Virus record (IMG/VR): IMGVR_UViG_3300032805_000004
Location: 14,256 to 78,255 of that record
Strand: one strand, 5' to 3'
Length of the DNA: 64,000 nt
Source of the DNA: a virus
The first letter of the stretch is position 1. Each line of letters begins with the position of its first letter. A program made the position numbers and the translations under genes. Of the stretch, positions 4,401 through 38,679 are shown piece after piece. The notes beneath the pieces were generated by a model, which had not been told where the DNA came from, did no database searches, and saw nothing but the letters and a program-made list of their open reading frames with translations.

Positions 4401-7400
4401 TCAAGAATACGGAGTTGTGTCACTGACTTGCAACCCCTGGAGAATACCGGAGTAGAAAGGCGCCGACGCAACGAGGGCGCCAAAGAGGAAGCGATCTGTT
4501 ACCCCCCGCTAAGCGGGTGGGCTGGTCATTTCTGCCAGCCTCTGCATCTTTCCCATCGATGCAGACCGGACTGTCTCACGCTCTGCGGCCGGGCGCCCGT
4601 AATGCCCCGGGTGGCCGTCCATAACACAGAGCCAGCACGTACAGTCTCTACACTGCGGCGGGCATCGCCGCAGCTCGGGATTCCCCAGCAATTGGAGGGG
4701 TTCCCCGAACAGTGCCGTTTTCCACGGCAGGTCACCCTGCCGCGCCACCCATTCAGTTCAGCGAGAACTGGACGTTGTTGATGGAATAGCGGAACGAGGC
4801 ATCGATGACGGGCCAGGCGATAGACGCGTAATCTTGTACACACGTCATTTCCCAGGCATTAGCGACATTCGTCCACGTCTGTGGCAACTGGTAGGACATC
4901 AGGAGTGCGGTGCCCTGGGTGAGCCACGGGTGGACGACCAGCTTGAGGATGGATCGGGTGATGGGGTTCTGGAACTCGCTGACCGCTGCGCCGACGCGGA
5001 CGCCGGCGACGTCGGGCTGGTCGAGGAACAGCCGGTAGTTCGTGGCCGTGCCCTGCGAGATCACATCGTTGGACAGGCGCATGATGTCGCCGCCGTCACC
5101 GACCAGCTCAGCCGGGTCAGCGCGGAACGCACCCGGCGTAGTAGAACCGGTCTGCGACTCCCACAACGCGTCAAGCGCCGTGTAGATGGTGTTGTACCCG
5201 AGGTGGGTGCCCACACCCTGGTTGACGTAACCGCCCTGCCAGTTCGCCGGGTACACACCCGCAGTCGCGGACCTGCCGGTCAGGGTGGGGATGATCCCCT
5301 CCATGCGGGTCGCCGCACCAGTACCGGTGTCAGCCGCCGGCGGCGCCGCAGTCGTAGTGATGATCGCACCCTGAACCGTGTAGCGGAGACCGCCGATCCC
5401 GGACACCTGCTTGAGGCAGGCCGTCGAAGCCGACGCGCCTGTAGCGGAGAAGGCGTAGATATTCCACGACAGGGCACCTGGCGGCAGGGTCACCGTCAGG
5501 TCAAACACGGATGTACCGGACGTGTACACGGCGTCGATCACATTGGATGCGACGGTTTCGCCGTAGTAGTTGGTTGCGGTCACACAGAACGACAGGTGAG
5601 TGCTGACGTCCGTTACTGCGGTCTCGTTCGAGCCGGGAGTCCGGGCAGTCGCCGACACCAGCGTTGGCGGTATCAGGGTTGTCGATGTGCCGGCGAGCAT
5701 CATGTACTCTTCCGCGCTGTTACCTCTCGCTTACTGAAAAGCGAGCGGGCTGGTCATTTCTGCCAGCCTCTCATGCTTTCACATGAGGCCGGACCATATC
5801 TTCACCCCACGTGGGGTGCCACGTACATGGTCTCTGAACCATCCCGTCGGAGCGAATCCAGGCGGGCTCGGCTGCTGATTTTCCCTACCCTTGGCTTCTC
5901 GAACCGTCGCGCTCGGGCTTTCGCCCCACGCTGTGGTGCCAAGGTCTAACAGGATGTCCCAGCAATTCTCGCGGTTTAGGCTGGGCAAAGAGGTCTCAAC
6001 CCAGCATCATTTCCTGTAGCAAAATGCACGCTTGTTACTCACCATCCCTGGGATGGCGGGGCTGGTCATTTCTGCCAGCCTCTGCACGTCTCCGTGCAGG
6101 TCAGACTATGTCTCCATCTGGTTTAGGTATCGGACGCAGGTTTCTTGCCCCTCCGGCTGCGGATGATCGCAACCGGGTCCTCCTCCGGATACAGGCCGAA
6201 CCGCTTAACGAGATGCTCAACACAGCCATCTACATCGGCTTCGACCTGCTCGTTGGTGAACCGGACGACCGTGTAGCCAGCATCGCTGAGCGCGGCATCG
6301 CGCTGCCTGTCGAACTCTGCGGCTGCTGGCATCTGGTGTCCCCAGCTGTCGATCTCAACAATGACCGGCTGCTGGTGGAGCTTGATGTCAGGGTAGTAGC
6401 GGTCCAGCTCGCGAGACTGTGTCTCGAAGCTGAGCGCGGCCCTGATTAGTGTCTGCTGGAACAACTGCTCCTGCGGCGAGTTCATCTTCGGCGACTGCAA
6501 TCCGAGTCGCCGGAATCGCTCACGCTGGGCTCCCTGGAAGGCGCCGCGTTCTGTAGCTTCGCGGCGCTTCTCGTACTGCTCCGGCCCCCATGTCCAGCCG
6601 TCGTGGCCGCTCCTGCGCATTTCCGTACCAGACATCCAGAGCCGCAGGTAGATGCTGCTCTGACTGCTGTGGAATCGCTCAGCAAGTTCAGAGGCGGTAG
6701 CGCCGTCCTCGTAGAGCTTGCGAAGCTCGTCAGGGTCTAGGTGTTCTTGCCGCCATCGTCTACGGCTGTTGACGCCTAGTTCTTTGGCCTTGCGGCTGAC
6801 GGTTTCGGGAGCGACACCGTACTCCTTCGCTACGGCCTTGAAGGAACCCAGTCGTTCGTAGTCCGCCCGGAGGTTGTTCCAGTCCAATCCAGATGCTCCG
6901 CGTGTAGTCGTTACGGCTCGCCCGCTACGTGCGGGATTGCCTCGGCGTTGTCCACATGACCCATCATATCATGGATGATGATGGCGAAGGAGGTTCACCG
7001 ATACAGCGGAGATCCCATCCGCACGTCACCGTGCGGTGGCCCCCTAATTGAGGTTTGCTAGCGCGGAAATGTCTTCGAATCCTTGCCCGGCGAATTGGGC
7101 GAGCCAGGAAAGGGATTCCGTAAGCCCGAAGAAGCGGTACGGTACCGCCAGATTCACTTCGGTCTGTGCGCCGGCGCCTGGCAGGTTGTTCGGCCAGTTC
7201 GCGGCACCGAGGCCACCGCCGGCCTGCACCAGTTCGGGGATCGAGATGTCGACGACGCCCTGGCCGCCGGTCTGTGATCCGGAGATGCCGGTGATGACAC
7301 GTTCTTGCCGCATGGTGCCTTGGCCTTGTGGCCGAGGTAGCTTGTTGCGGAAAACGGTATAAACCGGATAAATGAGACGAGATGGTGCAAGAAGGTCAAA

Positions 7401-31809: not shown

Positions 31810-32280
31810 TCACGGCAGTGGGATGAGACAGCCAGCGCTGCCCGTCCGCCCCGGCCAGAACCGGTCAAAATCCGCCGCATACGCTATTTCCGCCTGCGGA
31901 CGCCCCGCCAGGACAAGCTGCCGCGCCGCATCTGGCGGGAACCCCATACACGCCCGCAGCACACCGTAGGCCATGCTCGGCCCGCGGTTGACCCCGGCCG
32001 CGCAATGCGCATACACGCAGGTCCCGAGGCGGCTATACGCCCCGGTAGCGAACATGAGCCCCGACGACCACCACGTGTCAGGTTTCGGCAGCCCATCATC
32101 CGCTGTGGGATCCCACAGATACGTCAACCCGGCACCGGCGAGCAGTTGCGCATCGTCGAACTCGGCGCGGCAATCCAAAACGTGGGTGACCCCGGCGCGG
32201 ATCAGTGCGGTCACATCGGCCTGGTCGGTGATCGCGGCGCCGGTGGCCAGCCGGGCTGTGATCATCCCGAAATCAGCCAC
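31810..32280 (-). CDS. Dual-specificity/tyrosine protein phosphatase
   Basis: HCAAGVNRG = HCx5R signature; GVTHVLDC. Confidence 0.85.
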   Translation of the reverse strand: MADFGMITARLATGAAITDQADVTALIRAGVTHVLDCRAEFDDAQLLAGAGLTYLWDPTADDGLPKPDTWWSSGLMFATGAYSRLGTCVYAHCAAGVNRGPSMAYGVLRACMGFPPDAARQLVLAGRPQAEIAYAADFDRFWPGRTGSAGCLIPLP

Positions 32281-32285
32281 GACGC

Positions 32286-35200
32286 CTACTTGCCGCGTTC
32301 CCTGGCGGCGTGCTGCGCAGGCCAGTACCCCAGCGCCTCGTGATGACGCAAGTTACAGAACCCGTGCGCCTGCGCCTCAGTCATCTTCGCGTGCTCCATA
32401 ACCAGCCGGGTGCACCTGTCGAAGTCCCCGGGACTGCCCCATTTGATCTCTTCGGCATAGGCGAAGTGGGTTGGGCCGCCGTGCGCCTCATGCGTCCAAT
32501 ACTCCCGCAAAGTCTCGGCGTTCCCGGCCTTGGCCACCGGGGCGGGCTCCCAGCGGTCGCACACGTCCGCCGGGTCGATCACCCCAGCCACCAGACTGCA
32601 CGCATGATCTTCGTACATGCTGCAGGTGCCGCACGAACGGTCCGGGTCGGTCGCGGCGCGGTAGCGGACACTGTTCTTGCTCACCTTGACCCGCTTCGCC
32701 GATGCCGTACCGAGCGCGGCGAGGACCGTGTCGAGGTCGCCGGCGAGTTCGGGCCGCACCGCCGGGTTGTCCCGCAGTAGGGCCGGGTCCCACCAGGCGA
32801 TCGCCTCGACCTGGTCGCCGTCGGGGTCGTCGGGGTTGGTGACCTGCCCGCGGCCATCGTCGATGGGCACGGTGTCCTCGTCGGGGACGGCGTGGACGAA
32901 TCCTTGGTAGACGCCGTCTGGGCTTGTCCAGCCGCCAACAATGTCGCCGTCGGGTACCGTATGGCCGGTTTCTTCGGCCCACTCCCGCTTGGCGGCCTCG
33001 AGCGGTGTCTCACCGGGGTCGAGCTTCCCGCCGGGGAACTCCCAACATCCGCCGTCAGGGTCGTCTTCACCGAGGGCGCGCTGCAACATGAGCACCCGCC
33101 CAGTCCCGCGAGCCTGCACCGCCAGCCCCGCAGCGGTAGGGCCGGCGGTCGTCTTGTTCGCCGGATCGGCGCCCTGATGGAACTGGAACGAATGCGTCTC
33201 ATCCCACGGGCCGCCGTCATGGTCCACGAACCCGACATACGCCTTCACCGGCCGACCCAGCTTTTTGTACGCCAACGTCCGGTGATGCCCGTCGATGATT
33301 TTGACCTTGTCGTCGCCGGGTTCCTGCACCGCGACCACCGGATGCAGATGCGCCCGTTCATGCTTGATGTCCGCAGTGAACTGTTTCACCCGGTCGGGCT
33401 GGTGCGACGCCGCCCACGAGCCGACGTCGTCGTAGTCGACCCGGTCCTGGGGGATCAGCACCGGCCCGATCCACCGGGCGTCATCGATCCAGCCGAGCGC
33501 ATGCTCGGGGTAGTTCTTGCGGAGCTGGTTCTTGACGTGCTCCGGCTCGACCGGGTTGGGATCCGTGAGGTCGGCGGCGTTCTTCACCAGAACAGGTACG
33601 GCGGCGAGGGTCACGGCACCGATCGCAGCCGGCGCGAGAGCGCACCTGCAGTTATGCGCTATGATTCCGTTGGCGAAATACCATCCGTCAACGGTTTCGA
33701 GATTGTAGACATGACCAGACCAGTCGCAATGACGCCTGAGCTCAGCGACGCGATCGACGCCTACAAGAGCGGCAAGTCGCTCAGTGAGTGCGCGGCCATG
33801 TGCGGCATCGTTGGGCCAACCTTCAGGAACCGCCTCATCAAACTGGGCATCCCCCTGCGAGACACGCACTGGCTCGCCACATCCCAAAAGCTCGCCCTGC
33901 CAGTCGCTCTCATCGAGGAGTTCCACGGCGGCGCGACCATCAAATCCCTCACCCTGCGCTACGGCCTGTCTGGTAATACCATCCGCCGGAGACTCACAGA
34001 GTCCGGGGTCAACGTCAACCGACGCATACACCCGACCCCACCAGGCCTTATCGAGGATTACCTCGGCGGACTCGCCGTCAAGCCCATCGGCGCCAAGTAT
34101 GGACTGGACCGCAACACCGTCTACAGGATGCTCCGCGAAGCAGGTATCGACGGCCGGAACCGGTCGGAAGCAATGCAACTGCGCTGGCAGCGCGCGAACG
34201 TGGCCGAACGGCGCATCATGCTTGACCGGGCCCACGAGACGGCCCGTGGACGAGTCGCCAGCGCTGAGGAACGCGGCCAGATCGCTACCGCGAAAACAGG
34301 CGTGACCTTCAGCGGCAATGAGACAATCCTCGGCACACTCCTCGCCGACCTCGGCTACGACATCGCCTACGGTGTCCCCTGCGGCCCATACAACATCGAC
34401 GTAGTTATCGCCGGAACCGTCGCCGTGGAAGTCAACGGCGGTAACTGGCATGAGACCGGACATCACCGGGCCCGCTTCGGCGAGCGTGCGCGCCACATCC
34501 TCGATGCGGGCTACAGCCTGGCGATCATCTGGGCAGACGATCGCCGCTACCCGGTCAGCGCTATCTGTGCGGAGCAACTCGGAACCCTCACCGAGATCAC
34601 CCGCGGGCACCCATCCATCGGGCGTCAGCACTGGGTGATTCGGGGTGACGGGCACTTCCTTACCGTCCGCGAAGACGATGGTGACGAGGTCCCCTTTATA
34701 ACGTCGAGCGGTCGCCGCGACAGCTGACGGCCCAGTTACCACCACGCCAGCAGGGAAACAACGCGGGTGGCCCGGCGGTGACGGCACCCCCGACGGGAAC
34801 AGATCCCCCGTCGGGATCGGCCCGGCGTCACGGTTCGCCTGGCAGGCCACGCAGACACGCCCATCATCCGGTGCGGTCAGCCACTCCGTACGCGTCACCC
34901 CAGCATCGCTGTAGCGGTCCATCGACGCGGCGGACACGGCGCGGGCGATCTCCGTGTGGGCGATCATCTCCGCCCGGTTCTTCACATCAAGAATGCCCGG
35001 CAAGTCACGGGCGACCGTGTCCACCGGCTCACCCGCCCGGACACCCTCACTGATCGCCTGCGCGAGGTCGTCCATCTTGCTGTCCGCGACCGCGCTGATC
35101 CCCCGGACGTCGTACTCGTCAAGGAGGTTCCGCAGCCCAGTCTCATCGGCGATCTTTGCGGCGGCTTTCGGGTCGCCGGGTTTCCAGTCGCCCCAGTCCG

Positions 35201-36233: not shown

Positions 36234-36557
36234 ATGAGCACCGAACTGCTGCGGCTCCCGCCAGGACACAAGCTATACAGCTTTGATGCTCGTGAGGTCG
36301 CTGCTCCAGGGGCCATCTATCTAGCTTGGATGCCTGGCGACCTCGAAACATTGTTCGGGCCAGCACGGGAACTCCGCGACCGGGAGTTCCTGCTAGAGGT
36401 GGACGGTGAACAGTGGCTTGCTACTCCGATGCCGGATCTATTCATGGCTACCAATGATGATCACGTGATGGTCCTCGATACGGCCAGCATCAACGCGCGG
36501 ACCAACGGCGAGATAACTACGATCGACTTCAAGCTACTGCGTCCTATCCAGCCTTAG
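36234..36557 (+). CDS. Counter-oriented hypothetical protein between portal and MuF
   Basis: Fills the gap; lower GC; AATAAT 6 nt before ATG. Confidence 0.55.
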   Translation: MSTELLRLPPGHKLYSFDAREVAAPGAIYLAWMPGDLETLFGPARELRDREFLLEVDGEQWLATPMPDLFMATNDDHVMVLDTASINARTNGEITTIDFKLLRPIQP

Positions 36558-38679
36558 CGAGCGCGGTCTTAGCATCCGCTATCGCGGTGGTGACGGACTG
36601 CCCGTCACCGAGATCGAACCGGACCACGTCGAGGACGTCGCCGGGTAGGTGACGCGCATCCCACGAGGCCGGGTCACGGCCTTTGCGGAGGTGCCGTTCG
36701 AGGGCGTCGAGCTCGGCCCACGCTGCTTTCCCCACAGCCGCAGCCGTAGTCGGCCCGCTCGGGCTGCCTTGGCCGCGGCCGCCAGTATGCACGTCCGCGC
36801 CGGCCTCGCTGGCGGTGTGACCCGGGGTTTGTCCCGTGTTACCCGCACCCGACTGTGGTTTGTTGCCGCCGCCAGCCTCCGCCGGGGCGCTCGCAGGCCC
36901 GGCCGGCGCCGCGCCAGCCCCGGGCGGCTTCGGCGCACCCGGCGGAGGTGCCCCCCCTGCAGCCGGTGCGGGCGGCCCGCCCGGCTGACCAGGCAGCGGC
37001 GGCTGACCGGGCACAGGCTGCGGACCGGCATTCGGATCCGGCTGTCTCGTCTGCGGATTCATCGCACCCAAAGGAACCACACCAGTCTGGCTGGCCCACA
37101 CCGGATCCGAAGTGATCGGGATCCCCCACGGGTCCCGGTTCAGCTCAGCCCGCGCCTCATCAATGGATGACAGGCCGGCGCCGATCTGGGTGACGAGCAG
37201 CCCGGTCAACGTTTCCTCGTCTTCGTCCTGCTCGAGGCCTTCGGGCATCCATTGCAGGTCGTCTTGGCCGCACACGACCTGGAGGACCTTGTCGAACAGG
37301 GATTGCTTCAGGAACTCCAGCGTGGGGATCAGCGATTTGCGGGCGTGAACGTCCTTCGTCATCTTCGACATCTGGTTCGCGGCGCCGACGGACATCGTGG
37401 TGGATGCGCGTGGGGTGAGGCCGAGTTCCATCGGCATCACCTGGAAGGCCATGCAGACCTCTATCGACACGATGGAGTCGAACTCGGTGGCGAGTTCGGG
37501 TGGTTTCTGCGGGTCGGTTTTGGATCCCGGCGGCAGAACGACGATCTTGTGTTTGAAGCCGACGTCACCGGCCAGCGCGTTCAACGCGTCCTGCAATTCG
37601 CGGATCTGCGACGGGGTCATGTTCACGTCACCAGGGCTGACGAACATGCCGGGGATGGAACCTTCGCGGTAGAAGTCCATCTGGTACTGCTGCTTACCGA
37701 GCCCGGTCATGACCGGGACGAGGGCTTGTTCGATCGGTGGCATCCCGTACGGAGATGTTGTCTGCCGGGTGTACGGCAGGTACAGCAGTTGATCGCCGCG
37801 GTATTCGGCGACCTGGCCGGCTTTGAGTTCGTCGGTGAGGTCGTTTTGGTTGATGAGCTGCATGAGGTCGACGCGGGGGACGCCCCACAGGTACTGCTGG
37901 AACGCTGGGGCTGGTGGTCGTGGGCGGGAGCCGTGGAGGTCGAACAGGGGGCGCAAGGTGTCACCGGCGATGAGCTCGAGCGCGGTGAGGTCGGAGCCGA
38001 GGAGGCCTTTGCCTTTGCCCCAGGTGGGGCGCAAATAGACGGACATGGCGTCGATGGCGTAGAGGTCTTCGAGGAGGGTGTCGAGCCACGATGACCAGGA
38101 GCCGTATTCGGGGTCGGGGTTTTTGAAGAAGGCGACGGCTTGGGCTCGTCTCTCGCCGAAGTCGGCCATTGCTTTGTGGTCGCCGCGCATGGCTTTGGCG
38201 GCGTCTCGGGTGGGGATGATGTCCCATTCGAGGCCGCGGATCTCGGACTTGAGTAGCTGGATGCATGCCCTAGCTACCGAGTAGAGGGATGCGAGACTGC
38301 GAAGTACCTGGAAGTCGGCGAGTTTGACGCCTTCGGTGCCCGGCTGGCCGACGGGGAGGTTCCATCCGACCTGGTAGGGGAGCCGGCGTGGCATGGCGCG
38401 TTCGGCGCCTTCGGGTGGCTCGTCGATCGCCATCGGGTAGATGGGTGCGAACGGTCCGAAGGCGCCGGCTTGGAAGTTCTGCGGCGACCTGGGGAGGAAA
38501 CTGCCGTAGCCCGAGGCGTAGCCGGCTTGTGGTCCGCCGCCTAGCTGTGCGGCGAGTGGGCTGATCTGGCCGGTGGAGGGTCCTGTGGGGCCGGTTGGCA
38601 TGGCGAGGGCGCCTTGGCCGGATGGTGAGGCGGCGCGGGCGGCGCGGGCACCACCGATGATGGCTGCTGGGCTTGCCAA
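36544..38679 (-). CDS. Portal protein
   Basis: VARACI..LEWDI, FFKNPD, LLYLPY..SPYGMPPIEQAL, SIDEARAEL; position after terminase. Confidence 0.88.
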   Translation of the reverse strand: MASPAAIIGGARAARAASPSGQGALAMPTGPTGPSTGQISPLAAQLGGGPQAGYASGYGSFLPRSPQNFQAGAFGPFAPIYPMAIDEPPEGAERAMPRRLPYQVGWNLPVGQPGTEGVKLADFQVLRSLASLYSVARACIQLLKSEIRGLEWDIIPTRDAAKAMRGDHKAMADFGERRAQAVAFFKNPDPEYGSWSSWLDTLLEDLYAIDAMSVYLRPTWGKGKGLLGSDLTALELIAGDTLRPLFDLHGSRPRPPAPAFQQYLWGVPRVDLMQLINQNDLTDELKAGQVAEYRGDQLLYLPYTRQTTSPYGMPPIEQALVPVMTGLGKQQYQMDFYREGSIPGMFVSPGDVNMTPSQIRELQDALNALAGDVGFKHKIVVLPPGSKTDPQKPPELATEFDSIVSIEVCMAFQVMPMELGLTPRASTTMSVGAANQMSKMTKDVHARKSLIPTLEFLKQSLFDKVLQVVCGQDDLQWMPEGLEQDEDEETLTGLLVTQIGAGLSSIDEARAELNRDPWGIPITSDPVWASQTGVVPLGAMNPQTRQPDPNAGPQPVPGQPPLPGQPGGPPAPAAGGAPPPGAPKPPGAGAAPAGPASAPAEAGGGNKPQSGAGNTGQTPGHTASEAGADVHTGGRGQGSPSGPTTAAAVGKAAWAELDALERHLRKGRDPASWDARHLPGDVLDVVRFDLGDGQSVTTAIADAKTALAKAG

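Follow-up and report, generated by a model that had tools for sequence, protein, structure and literature searches.

The 64,000-nucleotide stretch of phage DNA analysed here (the window, from IMG/VR record IMGVR_UViG_3300032805_000004) carries a class-1 intein in a MuF-like head gene, and most of this intein is also read on the opposite strand, in codon register, as a nuclease gene. We propose, with a probability of about 0.8, that the two constitute one composite selfish element, in which the antisense homing endonuclease mobilises the whole unit. What was established directly is the anatomy of the locus, the fold of the antisense product, frame-specific selection, conservation across the family and the natural presence and absence of the unit. 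The layout was already described in a 2025 preprint discussed below, and the window provides a further example of it rather than a new kind.

According to this proposal, the minus strand would be translated straight through as part of a MuF precursor, in which folding would be limited to the terminal HINT parts, and these would excise the insert from the essential head protein by splicing. From the plus strand would come a 338-aa protein with three helix-turn-helix (HTH) modules and a Vsr-like nuclease. In a mixed infection, this nuclease would most likely cut the intein-less MuF gene at the HPR|CRC junction, and repair would then copy the entire 1110-bp unit into the cut allele.

The host gene and its intein

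The host gene adjoins the portal gene, its product is classed as a head protein by PHROG, and homologous genes are annotated as MuF-like. Pfam matched Phage_Mu_F at aa 378-481 (E 6.8e-6; 27.2 bits, with a cut-off of 29.6) and NUDIX at aa 1026-1142 (E 3.7e-18). The gene and the intein form one unbroken 1304-codon ORF, not two ORFs, and the intein splits the HPx|CRC motif of MuF, which is HPR|CRC in the window. Both the boundaries and the motifs agree with an earlier sequence-only reading, which had recognised a complete intein at this position: the Cys1 codon is at 34760-34758, the terminal Asn at 33653-33651 and the +1 Cys at 33650-33648, and the motifs are CFPAG, TPNH (aa 39-42), GHVYNLET and AHN|C. 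The Intein_splicing match of the window intein (E 2.4e-5) scores 24.6 bits, under the Pfam cut-off of 35.8, and the same domain was matched in 52 of 54 family members (best E 1.5e-16).

In the structural model of the intein, about 70 N-terminal and about 40 C-terminal residues have pLDDT >90, and sense-frame residues 171-316 (segments 171-258 and 269-316) are nearly all at pLDDT <50. No nuclease family was matched by Pfam in the sense frame of the window intein or of its 54 relatives, and the in-frame LAGLIDADG or HNH domain of a canonical bifunctional intein is absent here. The earlier impression that the intein center holds no nuclease motif was thus borne out, and no folded sense-strand nuclease came to light. 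The intact motifs, together with the need for a functional MuF protein, suggest that the intein undergoes protein splicing.

Table 1. Coordinates of the features of the element, numbered from the first letter of the window
Feature	Position	Strand	Basis
MuF-like head morphogenesis gene with C-terminal NUDIX, 1304 aa	32286..36200	-	ORF
Class-1 intein, 370 aa, Cys1 to His-Asn	33651..34760	-	motifs, Pfam, model, empty allele
Intein block B (TPNH)	34635..34646	-	minus frame better conserved here
Intein block F (GHVYNLET)	33693..33716	-	family codon bias
First 12 C-extein codons, CRCALAPAAIGA	33615..33650	-	compared with intein-less allele
Antisense gene for the predicted homing endonuclease, 338 aa	33711..34727	+	ORF, Pfam, AlphaFold, family start column
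Three helix-turn-helix modules, aa 9-44, 63-97, 113-143	33735..34139	+	secondary structure, Pfam, structure matches
Vsr-like PD-(D/E)xK core, aa 199-321	34305..34673	+	structure and profile matches
Candidate promoter element, -10-like box TATGAT	33660..33665	+	family-guided search

The antisense gene and its product

The nuclease ORF is codon-aligned with the intein frame (plus position 1 faces minus position 3), and about 1 kb is read on both strands. Its stop codon, TGA, faces intein codon 12 (Ser), hence the overlap with block B, which stands opposite WVIRG in the C-terminal beta-hairpin of the nuclease and is therefore a dual-coding stretch. At its other end the ORF reaches block F, its ATG being the plus-strand reading of the block-F His codon CAT (33713-33711); alternative starts are at 33654 and 33729.

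Profile search and structure prediction returned the HTH repeats and the Vsr-like nuclease that had been expected from the sequence. The Pfam matches of the 338-aa product were REase_MTES_1575 (E 3e-7) and HTH_28/23/58, and its AlphaFold model (pLDDT 90) shows an alpha/beta nuclease core preceded by three HTH modules. The tandem HTH part matched 2lvs in a profile comparison (E 8.5e-9), with HTH structural matches at Z 5-6. In a wide search with VIA-align, the top structural match of the model was Vsr 1cw0 (Z 11.1, rmsd 2.4, 114 residues), with an alignment extending to residue 321, followed by I-Bth0305I (3r3p) and 3hrl (Z 8.8); the profile matches were 3hrl, 3r3p (E 2.5e-4) and 1cw0 (E 0.016). 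When the full-length model was compared with the PDB by Foldseek, nothing matched at E <=0.001, the score being diluted by the multi-domain model. Residues Y227, N228, D230 (34398-34400), E240 (34428-34430) and H247 (34449-34451) are conserved, the last three at >=90% among 83 sequences. The modelling confirms the antisense product as a predicted nuclease of Vsr-like PD-(D/E)xK fold with conserved acidic and His residues, the putative active site, on its core sheet.

The homing endonuclease I-Bth0305I (PDB 3R3P), which belongs to the EDxHD family and is encoded by a group I intron in a phage recA gene, and E. coli Vsr (1CW0) have the nuclease fold in common with the window protein. However, the window protein differs from both in its DNA-binding modules and in its genetic vehicle, which is an intron in the one case and a cellular repair gene in the other, and the EDxHD motif of I-Bth0305I is not literally evident in the window nuclease, which reads VAVEVNGGNWH. 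On the sense strand, DFHGDG..VDVV was considered as a real intein motif and ruled out, as it is a codon-by-codon mirror of the nuclease segments VAVEV and YNIDV.

A protein of this kind might instead have been domesticated by the phage, as a DNA-binding regulator, to exclude competing phages or to process DNA, with loss of its homing role. Its three HTH modules, the very large size of the family and its strong conservation, which includes lineages described as vertically inherited in the preprint, would all fit such a history. However, D230, E240 and H247, residues of catalytic type, hardly vary, the gene lies inside an intein, as expected of a mobility enzyme, and the unit is polymorphic in presence and absence within one habitat, so that domestication appears quite improbable.

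Selection and expression signals in the two frames

Amino acid identity and synonymous changes were compared per frame among 60 non-redundant family members. In the core (34056-34595), identity was 0.26-0.65 in the plus frame versus 0.14-0.53 in the minus frame, and 62% of the single-base codon differences were synonymous in the plus frame versus 23% in the minus frame. The termini showed the opposite pattern: identity was 0.27-0.51 in the minus frame versus 0.15-0.33 in the plus frame, and 77-80% of the single-base codon differences were synonymous in the minus frame. The per-frame check put forward in the sequence-only reading therefore shows that selection switches frame: it conserves the nuclease reading through the middle of the intein and the splicing protein's reading toward either end.

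High GC content had been offered as the reason why both frames stay open. This explanation holds for the window, where the chance of both frames being open at 66% GC is about 0.13, but it fails for relatives of 44-52% GC, where the chance is only 1e-2 to 5e-10. The 80 fetched viral contigs span GC 44-71%, and the codon-aligned opposite frame, in which stops among close homologs would have been evidence against the arrangement, is open over 268-1604 codons in all 80 of these IMG/VR loci, while the other two frames close. Since the same layout persists at 44-52% GC, openness is kept by selection and not by composition alone, and the high-GC explanation is sufficient only locally. The figure of 0.13 could also be cited for the view that high GC has left the plus ORF open by chance or during its decay, in which case the intein would be a mini-intein that has filler sequence and no mobility. 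However, the frame is intact in the 44-52% GC relatives, changes in the core are biased to synonymous ones in the plus frame, and the product has a Vsr fold (Z 11.1, in a model of pLDDT 90) and homologs at E down to 1e-124, all of which makes such a frame very improbable.

Several codons of the intein blocks are biased across the family in ways that may serve the opposite strand. The start column of the nuclease is conserved, the block-F His codon is CAT in 39 of 48 cases (17.4 expected), and the block-F Leu codon is CTC in 44 of 54 (14.8 expected). The TATGAT box, a 5/6 match found by the looser family-guided search only, lies 45 nt upstream of the nuclease ATG, opposite the block-G Ile-Ile codons ATC ATA. 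ATA is used for none of the 32 Ile codons in the window MuF extein, whereas the family uses it in 12 cases of 25 versus 2.3 expected. A sigma-70 consensus scan upstream of the nuclease ORF found no plus-strand promoter, and in the window there is no clear Shine-Dalgarno sequence before the nuclease ATG (GAG only) and no -35 box. From the conserved start, RBS and -10 signals, expression of the nuclease independent of MuF is plausible, and with these signals placed inside block F/G codons the protein could be made apart from the late MuF transcript.

Distribution, empty site and known systems

The nuclease family comprises 2348 cluster representatives at E <=1e-3. The best 150 of these 2348 matches are 216-444 aa long, except for two (720 and 836 aa) that match the HTH part alone. 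A C-terminal CxCGCG extension was seen in the metagenomic protein matches P0018-P0020. In nearly all of the 80 loci, Cys1 follows H-P-x and the intein ends in [H/S/K/Q]N|C(R/K)C, which is the same MuF site; the window intein is the longest of the set. The layout is also present in phages of 44-52% GC, namely Salmonella Jerseyviruses, Vibrio and Klebsiella phages. A megablast search of 33400-35000 against the phage collection gave no match.

A contig from wetland metagenome run X5 carries a related MuF allele that lacks exactly 33651-34760 (1110 bases). In this contig, 33614 and 34759 are linked by 34 letters, for a net loss of 1110 bases, and HPR is followed directly by CRCAAAPAALGT, a diverged copy of the C-extein start. 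Run X4 has matching loose ends. The stretch 33615..33650 joined with 34761 onwards is the presumed homing site. The strain behind the intein-less contig differs by about 7% in the flanks, and the contig accordingly represents presence and absence among relatives, not a homing event. Within the intein, the single listed variant is 34172 A>G, a silent change for the nuclease that replaces Cys by Arg in the intein frame; the flanks have 22 listed variant sites, although so few variants within the intein carry little weight because rare variants are dropped by contigs.

Alternatively, the antisense gene could encode a free-standing homing endonuclease in its own right, a parasite of the intein that targets mini-inteins lacking an endonuclease, or another site, without mobilising the unit. 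A second HTH + DUF559 endonuclease in the same phage (6123-6887) and the presence in Pseudomonas phages of intein homologs without this nuclease agree with such a history, and an origin through a free-standing endonuclease gene invading an intein is proposed in the preprint (10.1101/2025.01.02.630785). However, the nuclease lies within an intein in 80 of 80 fetched loci, nearly always at the same MuF site, the natural empty allele lacks intein and nuclease jointly, and the nuclease start and promoter-like signals are made of block F/G codons, which points to long co-evolution. A free-standing parasite is therefore unlikely, if slightly less so than domestication, and a composite element mobilised as a whole is preferred.

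The preprint in question (Gosselin, Arsenault, Gogarten, bioRxiv 10.1101/2025.01.02.630785) describes 'VSR -1 ORF' inteins in the MuF-like minor capsid proteins of 16 actinophages, including Malisha, Vivi2, Fosterous and Affeca. These four are direct homologs of the window element, matched by tblastn on the strand opposite MuF at E 2e-26 to 3e-24. The shared characters are a MuF host, a contiguous intein, an unfoldable sense core, an antisense ORF in frame -1 and a Vsr-like fold, with Z 10.6 to 1CW0 in the preprint and Z 11.1 here. In contrast to those PhagesDB members, the window copy belongs to a 78-kb wetland phage that is uncultivated, and its nuclease includes a third HTH module. The breadth beyond actinophages, with the spread to 44-52% GC, the switch of selection between frames, the expression signals in blocks F/G and the natural empty site do not appear in the portion of the preprint consulted.

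The preprint also cites antisense LAGLIDADG inteins (Synechocystis DnaX and others; Gorbalenya 1998, Gogarten 2002) and reports an antisense LAGLIDADG ORF in the MuF inteins of DE1 Gordonia phages. According to the preprint, they resemble the window element in having the endonuclease on the strand opposite a contiguous intein, but the window nuclease is a Vsr-like PD-(D/E)xK enzyme with HTH modules. The earlier statements that no description of the arrangement was known, and that known intein endonucleases are in-frame domains, are both superseded by these reports. A further comparison is offered by the 'fractured genes' of Dassa et al. 2009 (PMC2677866), in which a free-standing Vsr-like or GIY-YIG endonuclease gene lies between the halves of a split intein. 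There too a Vsr-like homing endonuclease has its own gene within the intein locus, with short overlaps with the intein parts. However, in fractured genes the intein and host gene are broken in two, with the original orientation kept and the endonuclease gene between them, whereas the window intein is one uninterrupted frame with the nuclease antisense over about 1 kb.

Since gene callers annotate one strand only, they miss a large nuclease family in phages, among them Salmonella and Gordonia phages that are candidates for therapy. As a natural example of long sense/antisense double coding the element is clean, and the strand read by selection is visible place by place. With both the filled and the empty site, the wetland data provide a sequence that could serve directly as substrate in a cleavage assay, and they support the 'splicing domain first, endonuclease later' view of intein origin. 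A more tentative idea, which we hold at somewhat less than even, is that the layout is an old, obligate two-strand element in the MuF genes of phages of many bacterial phyla, with its promoter, ribosome-binding site and start codon in block F/G codons, rather than a rare accident of invasion. If so, the splicing function would be locked to nuclease expression, synthesis of the nuclease might start early, ahead of the late head gene, and a two-strand element would have spread across over a thousand protein clusters.

Anatomy and genomic setting of the element

The window comes from one contig of 78,255 bases and represents a tailed-phage genome (GC ~66%), near-identical copies of which were found in five wetland metagenome runs. 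The genes flanking the element lie on the minus strand (see the table), and the MuF-like gene that hosts it matches Phage_Mu_F (aa 378-481), Intein_splicing (aa 494-850) and NUDIX (aa 1026-1142). At 1304 aa the protein is unusually large for MuF; it has a long N-terminal region rich in Ala/Pro/Lys, and a NUDIX hydrolase domain (E 3.7e-18) is fused to it in the C-extein. The product of the small downstream gene contains an HCxxGxxR-type motif and weakly resembles dual-specificity phosphatases, at a score below the cut-off (DSPc, E 0.0025). Between the portal and MuF genes, a lone plus-strand ORF of 107 aa in a lower-GC pocket (0.58-0.60), for which no match was found in Pfam, may be an inserted gene.

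Coordinates of the intein, its antisense ORF and other features of the window
Feature	Position	Strand	Basis or remark
HTH + Vsr-like endonuclease gene	6123-6887	-	HTH_7 E 2e-7, DUF559 E 5.5e-12
Small phosphatase-like gene	31810-32280	-	directly downstream of MuF
MuF-like gene, 1304 aa	32286-36200	-	Pfam domain matches
C-extein	32286-33650	-	
Intein, 370 aa	33651-34760	-	Cys1 at 34760-34758 after HPR; terminal AHN at 33653-33651, then CRC
TAnnnT box (TATGAT)	33660-33665	+	family comparison
Antisense nuclease ORF, 338 aa	33711-34727	+	wholly within intein
Lone ORF, 107 aa	36234-36557	+	
Portal gene	36544-38679	-	Phage_portal E 6.9e-17

The intein carries the splicing motifs CFPAG, TPNH (block B, aa 39-42) and GHVYNLET (block F), and its first cysteine, motifs and AHN end followed by CRC were all found where the sequence-only reading had placed them. 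That reading had also claimed an antisense ORF inside the intein, codon-aligned with it and overlapping block B, with which the coordinates and stop position agree: position 1 of plus-strand codons pairs with position 3 of minus-strand codons, and the TGA stop is the complement of intein Ser codon 12, so the nuclease ORF spans block B. Moreover, the codon-position GC pattern of the host gene flips inside the intein (host GC1 > host GC3), as it should if the coding frame there is on the plus strand. In many related IMG/VR loci (e.g., L002, L015, L025, L035 and L075), the nuclease stop is formed by the complementary bases of intein codon 2 (Leu TTA/CTA) or 3, and the antisense gene covers almost exactly the length of the intein.

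Products of the two frames and selection on them

In Pfam, the product of the plus frame is similar to REase_MTES_1575 (E 3e-7) and to several HTH families. A profile built from 83 homologs gave E values of 8.5e-9 for the tandem-HTH protein 2lvs, 1.6e-5 for the endonuclease-like 3hrl, 2.5e-4 for the homing endonuclease I-Bth0305I (3r3p) and 0.016 for Vsr (1cw0). An AlphaFold model using the same alignment as input (mean pLDDT 90) shows three three-helix modules (aa 9-44, 63-97 and 113-143), a long helical linker and an alpha/beta core. In a wide structural search, the top match was Vsr 1cw0 (Z 11.1, rmsd 2.4, 114 residues, model residues 199-321), followed by I-Bth0305I and 3hrl at Z 8.8, clearly above the other matches, and D230, E240 and H247 each show a conservation of at least 90%. 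The profile matches, the model and the similarity to 1cw0 thus bear out the antisense HTH + Vsr-like nuclease. A second HTH + Vsr-like gene lies elsewhere in the window, which the sequence-only reading takes to be the intron-1 endonuclease of the capsid gene; the HTH part of its product distantly resembles the antisense nuclease (E 2e-6).

The only match of the intein frame, for the window as for 52 of 54 relatives, is to the intein splicing domain; the domain search of the window and all 54 relatives found no nuclease family in that frame. Its model is confident for only ~70 N-terminal and 40 C-terminal residues, and residues 171-316 are almost entirely at pLDDT <50, in keeping with the claim of a core without a nuclease. 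The sense-frame motif DFHGDG..VDVV is, as proposed, a codon-by-codon mirror of the nuclease VAVEV and YNIDV.

Selection on each frame was examined in a codon alignment of the whole element from 60 non-redundant members. Pairwise identities within the core (34056-34595) range over 0.26-0.65 for the nuclease frame versus 0.14-0.53 for the intein frame, with most differences at plus codon position 3. At the two ends (33651-33740 and 34596-34760), the order is reversed (0.27-0.51 in the intein frame versus 0.15-0.33 in the nuclease frame), with differences at plus position 1, i.e., minus position 3. Among the four pairs with a nucleotide identity of at least 70%, the synonymous share of single-base codon differences in the core is 62% for the nuclease frame versus 23% for the intein frame; at the two splicing ends it is 77-80% for the intein frame. 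The nuclease frame is thus conserved in the core and the intein frame at both ends, and these patterns argue for ~1 kb read on both strands, with amino-acid selection on one strand only at most places. The clearest truly shared stretch is the C-terminal beta-hairpin of the nuclease opposite block B, which is included in the Vsr-fold alignment.

Breadth of the family and expression signals

By tblastn, homologs of the plus-strand ORF sit opposite annotated MuF or head-morphogenesis genes in the Gordonia phages Malisha, Vivi2, Fosterous and Affeca, in many Salmonella Jerseyviruses, and in Klebsiella, Escherichia, Vibrio and Pantoea phages. The N-terminal part of the intein also has matches in fourteen Pseudomonas phage records, Pseudomonas not being named among the organisms matching the nuclease; these may be MuF inteins with a different or no endonuclease at the same site. 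An exhaustive HMMER search returned 2348 cluster representatives at E <=1e-3 (1020 at E <=1e-10), and nearly all of the best 150 of the 2348 are 216-444 aa long. Three homologs (P0018, P0019 and P0020) have a C-terminal extension with a CxCGCG...GH motif absent from the others.

A pattern scan of IMG/VR gave 295 relatives, the best 80 of which were fetched. Stops in the antisense frame were looked for, and in 80/80 loci (GC 0.44-0.71) the codon-aligned frame of the opposite strand stays open over 268-1604 codons, the other two opposite frames closing within 0-181 codons. Nearly all 80 have Cys1 after H-P-x and an [H/S/K/Q]N|C(R/K)C end, i.e., the same MuF insertion site. High GC had been proposed to keep both frames open. 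Estimated from the TTA, CTA and TCA frequencies in each locus's own extein, an open run of this kind would arise by chance with a probability of ~0.13 in the window but 1e-2 to 5e-10 in loci of 44-52% GC; high GC is therefore sufficient only locally, and across the family selection maintains two-strand openness.

Opposite the block-F His, 48 of 60 members have ATG (39) or GTG (9), often with an in-frame stop a few codons upstream, and of the 50 members with a start codon there, 39 have GGAGG, GAGG or GGAG within the preceding 3-18 nt. In accord with such start and RBS-like signals on the opposite strand, the block-F His codon is CAT in 39/48 (17.4 expected from extein usage) and the block-F Leu codon is CTC in 44/54 (14.8 expected), neither value being reached in 200,000 simulations. 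In the window's subgroup, a TAnnnT box lies opposite the Ile-Ile codons of block G, 45 nt before the ATG. The Ile at this place is ATA in 12/25 members (2.3 expected), and ATA is used for 0/32 Ile codons of the window's MuF extein. The window's Shine-Dalgarno match is poor (GAG only), no -35 box was found upstream of its nuclease ORF, and the start could alternatively be 33654 or 33729. Judged from these signals, independent expression of the nuclease gene is plausible. Another subgroup (L020, L025, L034, L054, L055 and L074) has a perfect TTGACA-17 nt-TATAAT on the plus strand in the last ~20 intein codons, followed by GGAGG and ATG, all antisense of the intein's ...LYIANGILSSN end.

Natural empty site and relation to described inteins

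Contigs from four wetland runs were compared over 33300-35100. In a contig from run X5, 33614 is joined to 34759 with 34 other letters between, a net loss of 1110 bases, exactly the intein, and the minus strand reads HPR and then CRCAAAPAALGT. This is an intein-free MuF allele from a strain ~7% diverged in the flanks, and it confirms the DNA boundaries of the intein; in run X4, loose ends at 33620 and 34759 match it. These contigs show presence or absence of the unit among co-occurring relatives, not a homing event. The single variant listed within the intein, 34172 A>G, leaves Ala unchanged in the nuclease frame and replaces Cys by Arg in the intein frame, and 22 listed variant sites lie in the flanks. 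The extein flanks 33300-33600 and 34790-34910 are highly polymorphic among the runs, and contigs that carry the intein end 90-220 bases beyond it on each side, a pattern to be expected where strains with and without the intein have sequence in common.

The sequence-only reading was mistaken in knowing of no description of this layout. Antisense VSR-like endonucleases in full inteins are described in a preprint by Gosselin, Arsenault and Gogarten (bioRxiv 10.1101/2025.01.02.630785, October 2025 version), whose Supplemental Table 1 lists a 'VSR -1 ORF' in MuF-like minor capsid inteins of 16 actinophages, including Malisha, Vivi2, Angelicage, Affeca, Fosterous, Sampson, REQ3 and Sejanus. The authors reported that the sense-frame cores are unfoldable and that the match to Vsr reaches Z 10.6, and cited antisense LAGLIDADG inteins from 1998 and 2002. 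Vsr-like endonuclease genes were also found between split-intein halves, with the broken gene parts in their original orientation (Dassa et al. 2009, PMC2677866). The accessible text of a Jerseyvirus paper notes an intein-containing capsid morphogenesis gene and does not mention an antisense gene.

The window element is, going by the accessible preprint text, another 'VSR -1 ORF'-type MuF intein, which is the longest of the 80-locus set and carries a third HTH module; we infer its transcription, cleavage, homing and splicing. Leaving that category unchanged, the present analysis adds to the accessible part of the preprint, within the searched literature, the breadth past actinophages, the switch of selection between frames, the expression signals within codons of the splicing blocks and the empty site found in nature.
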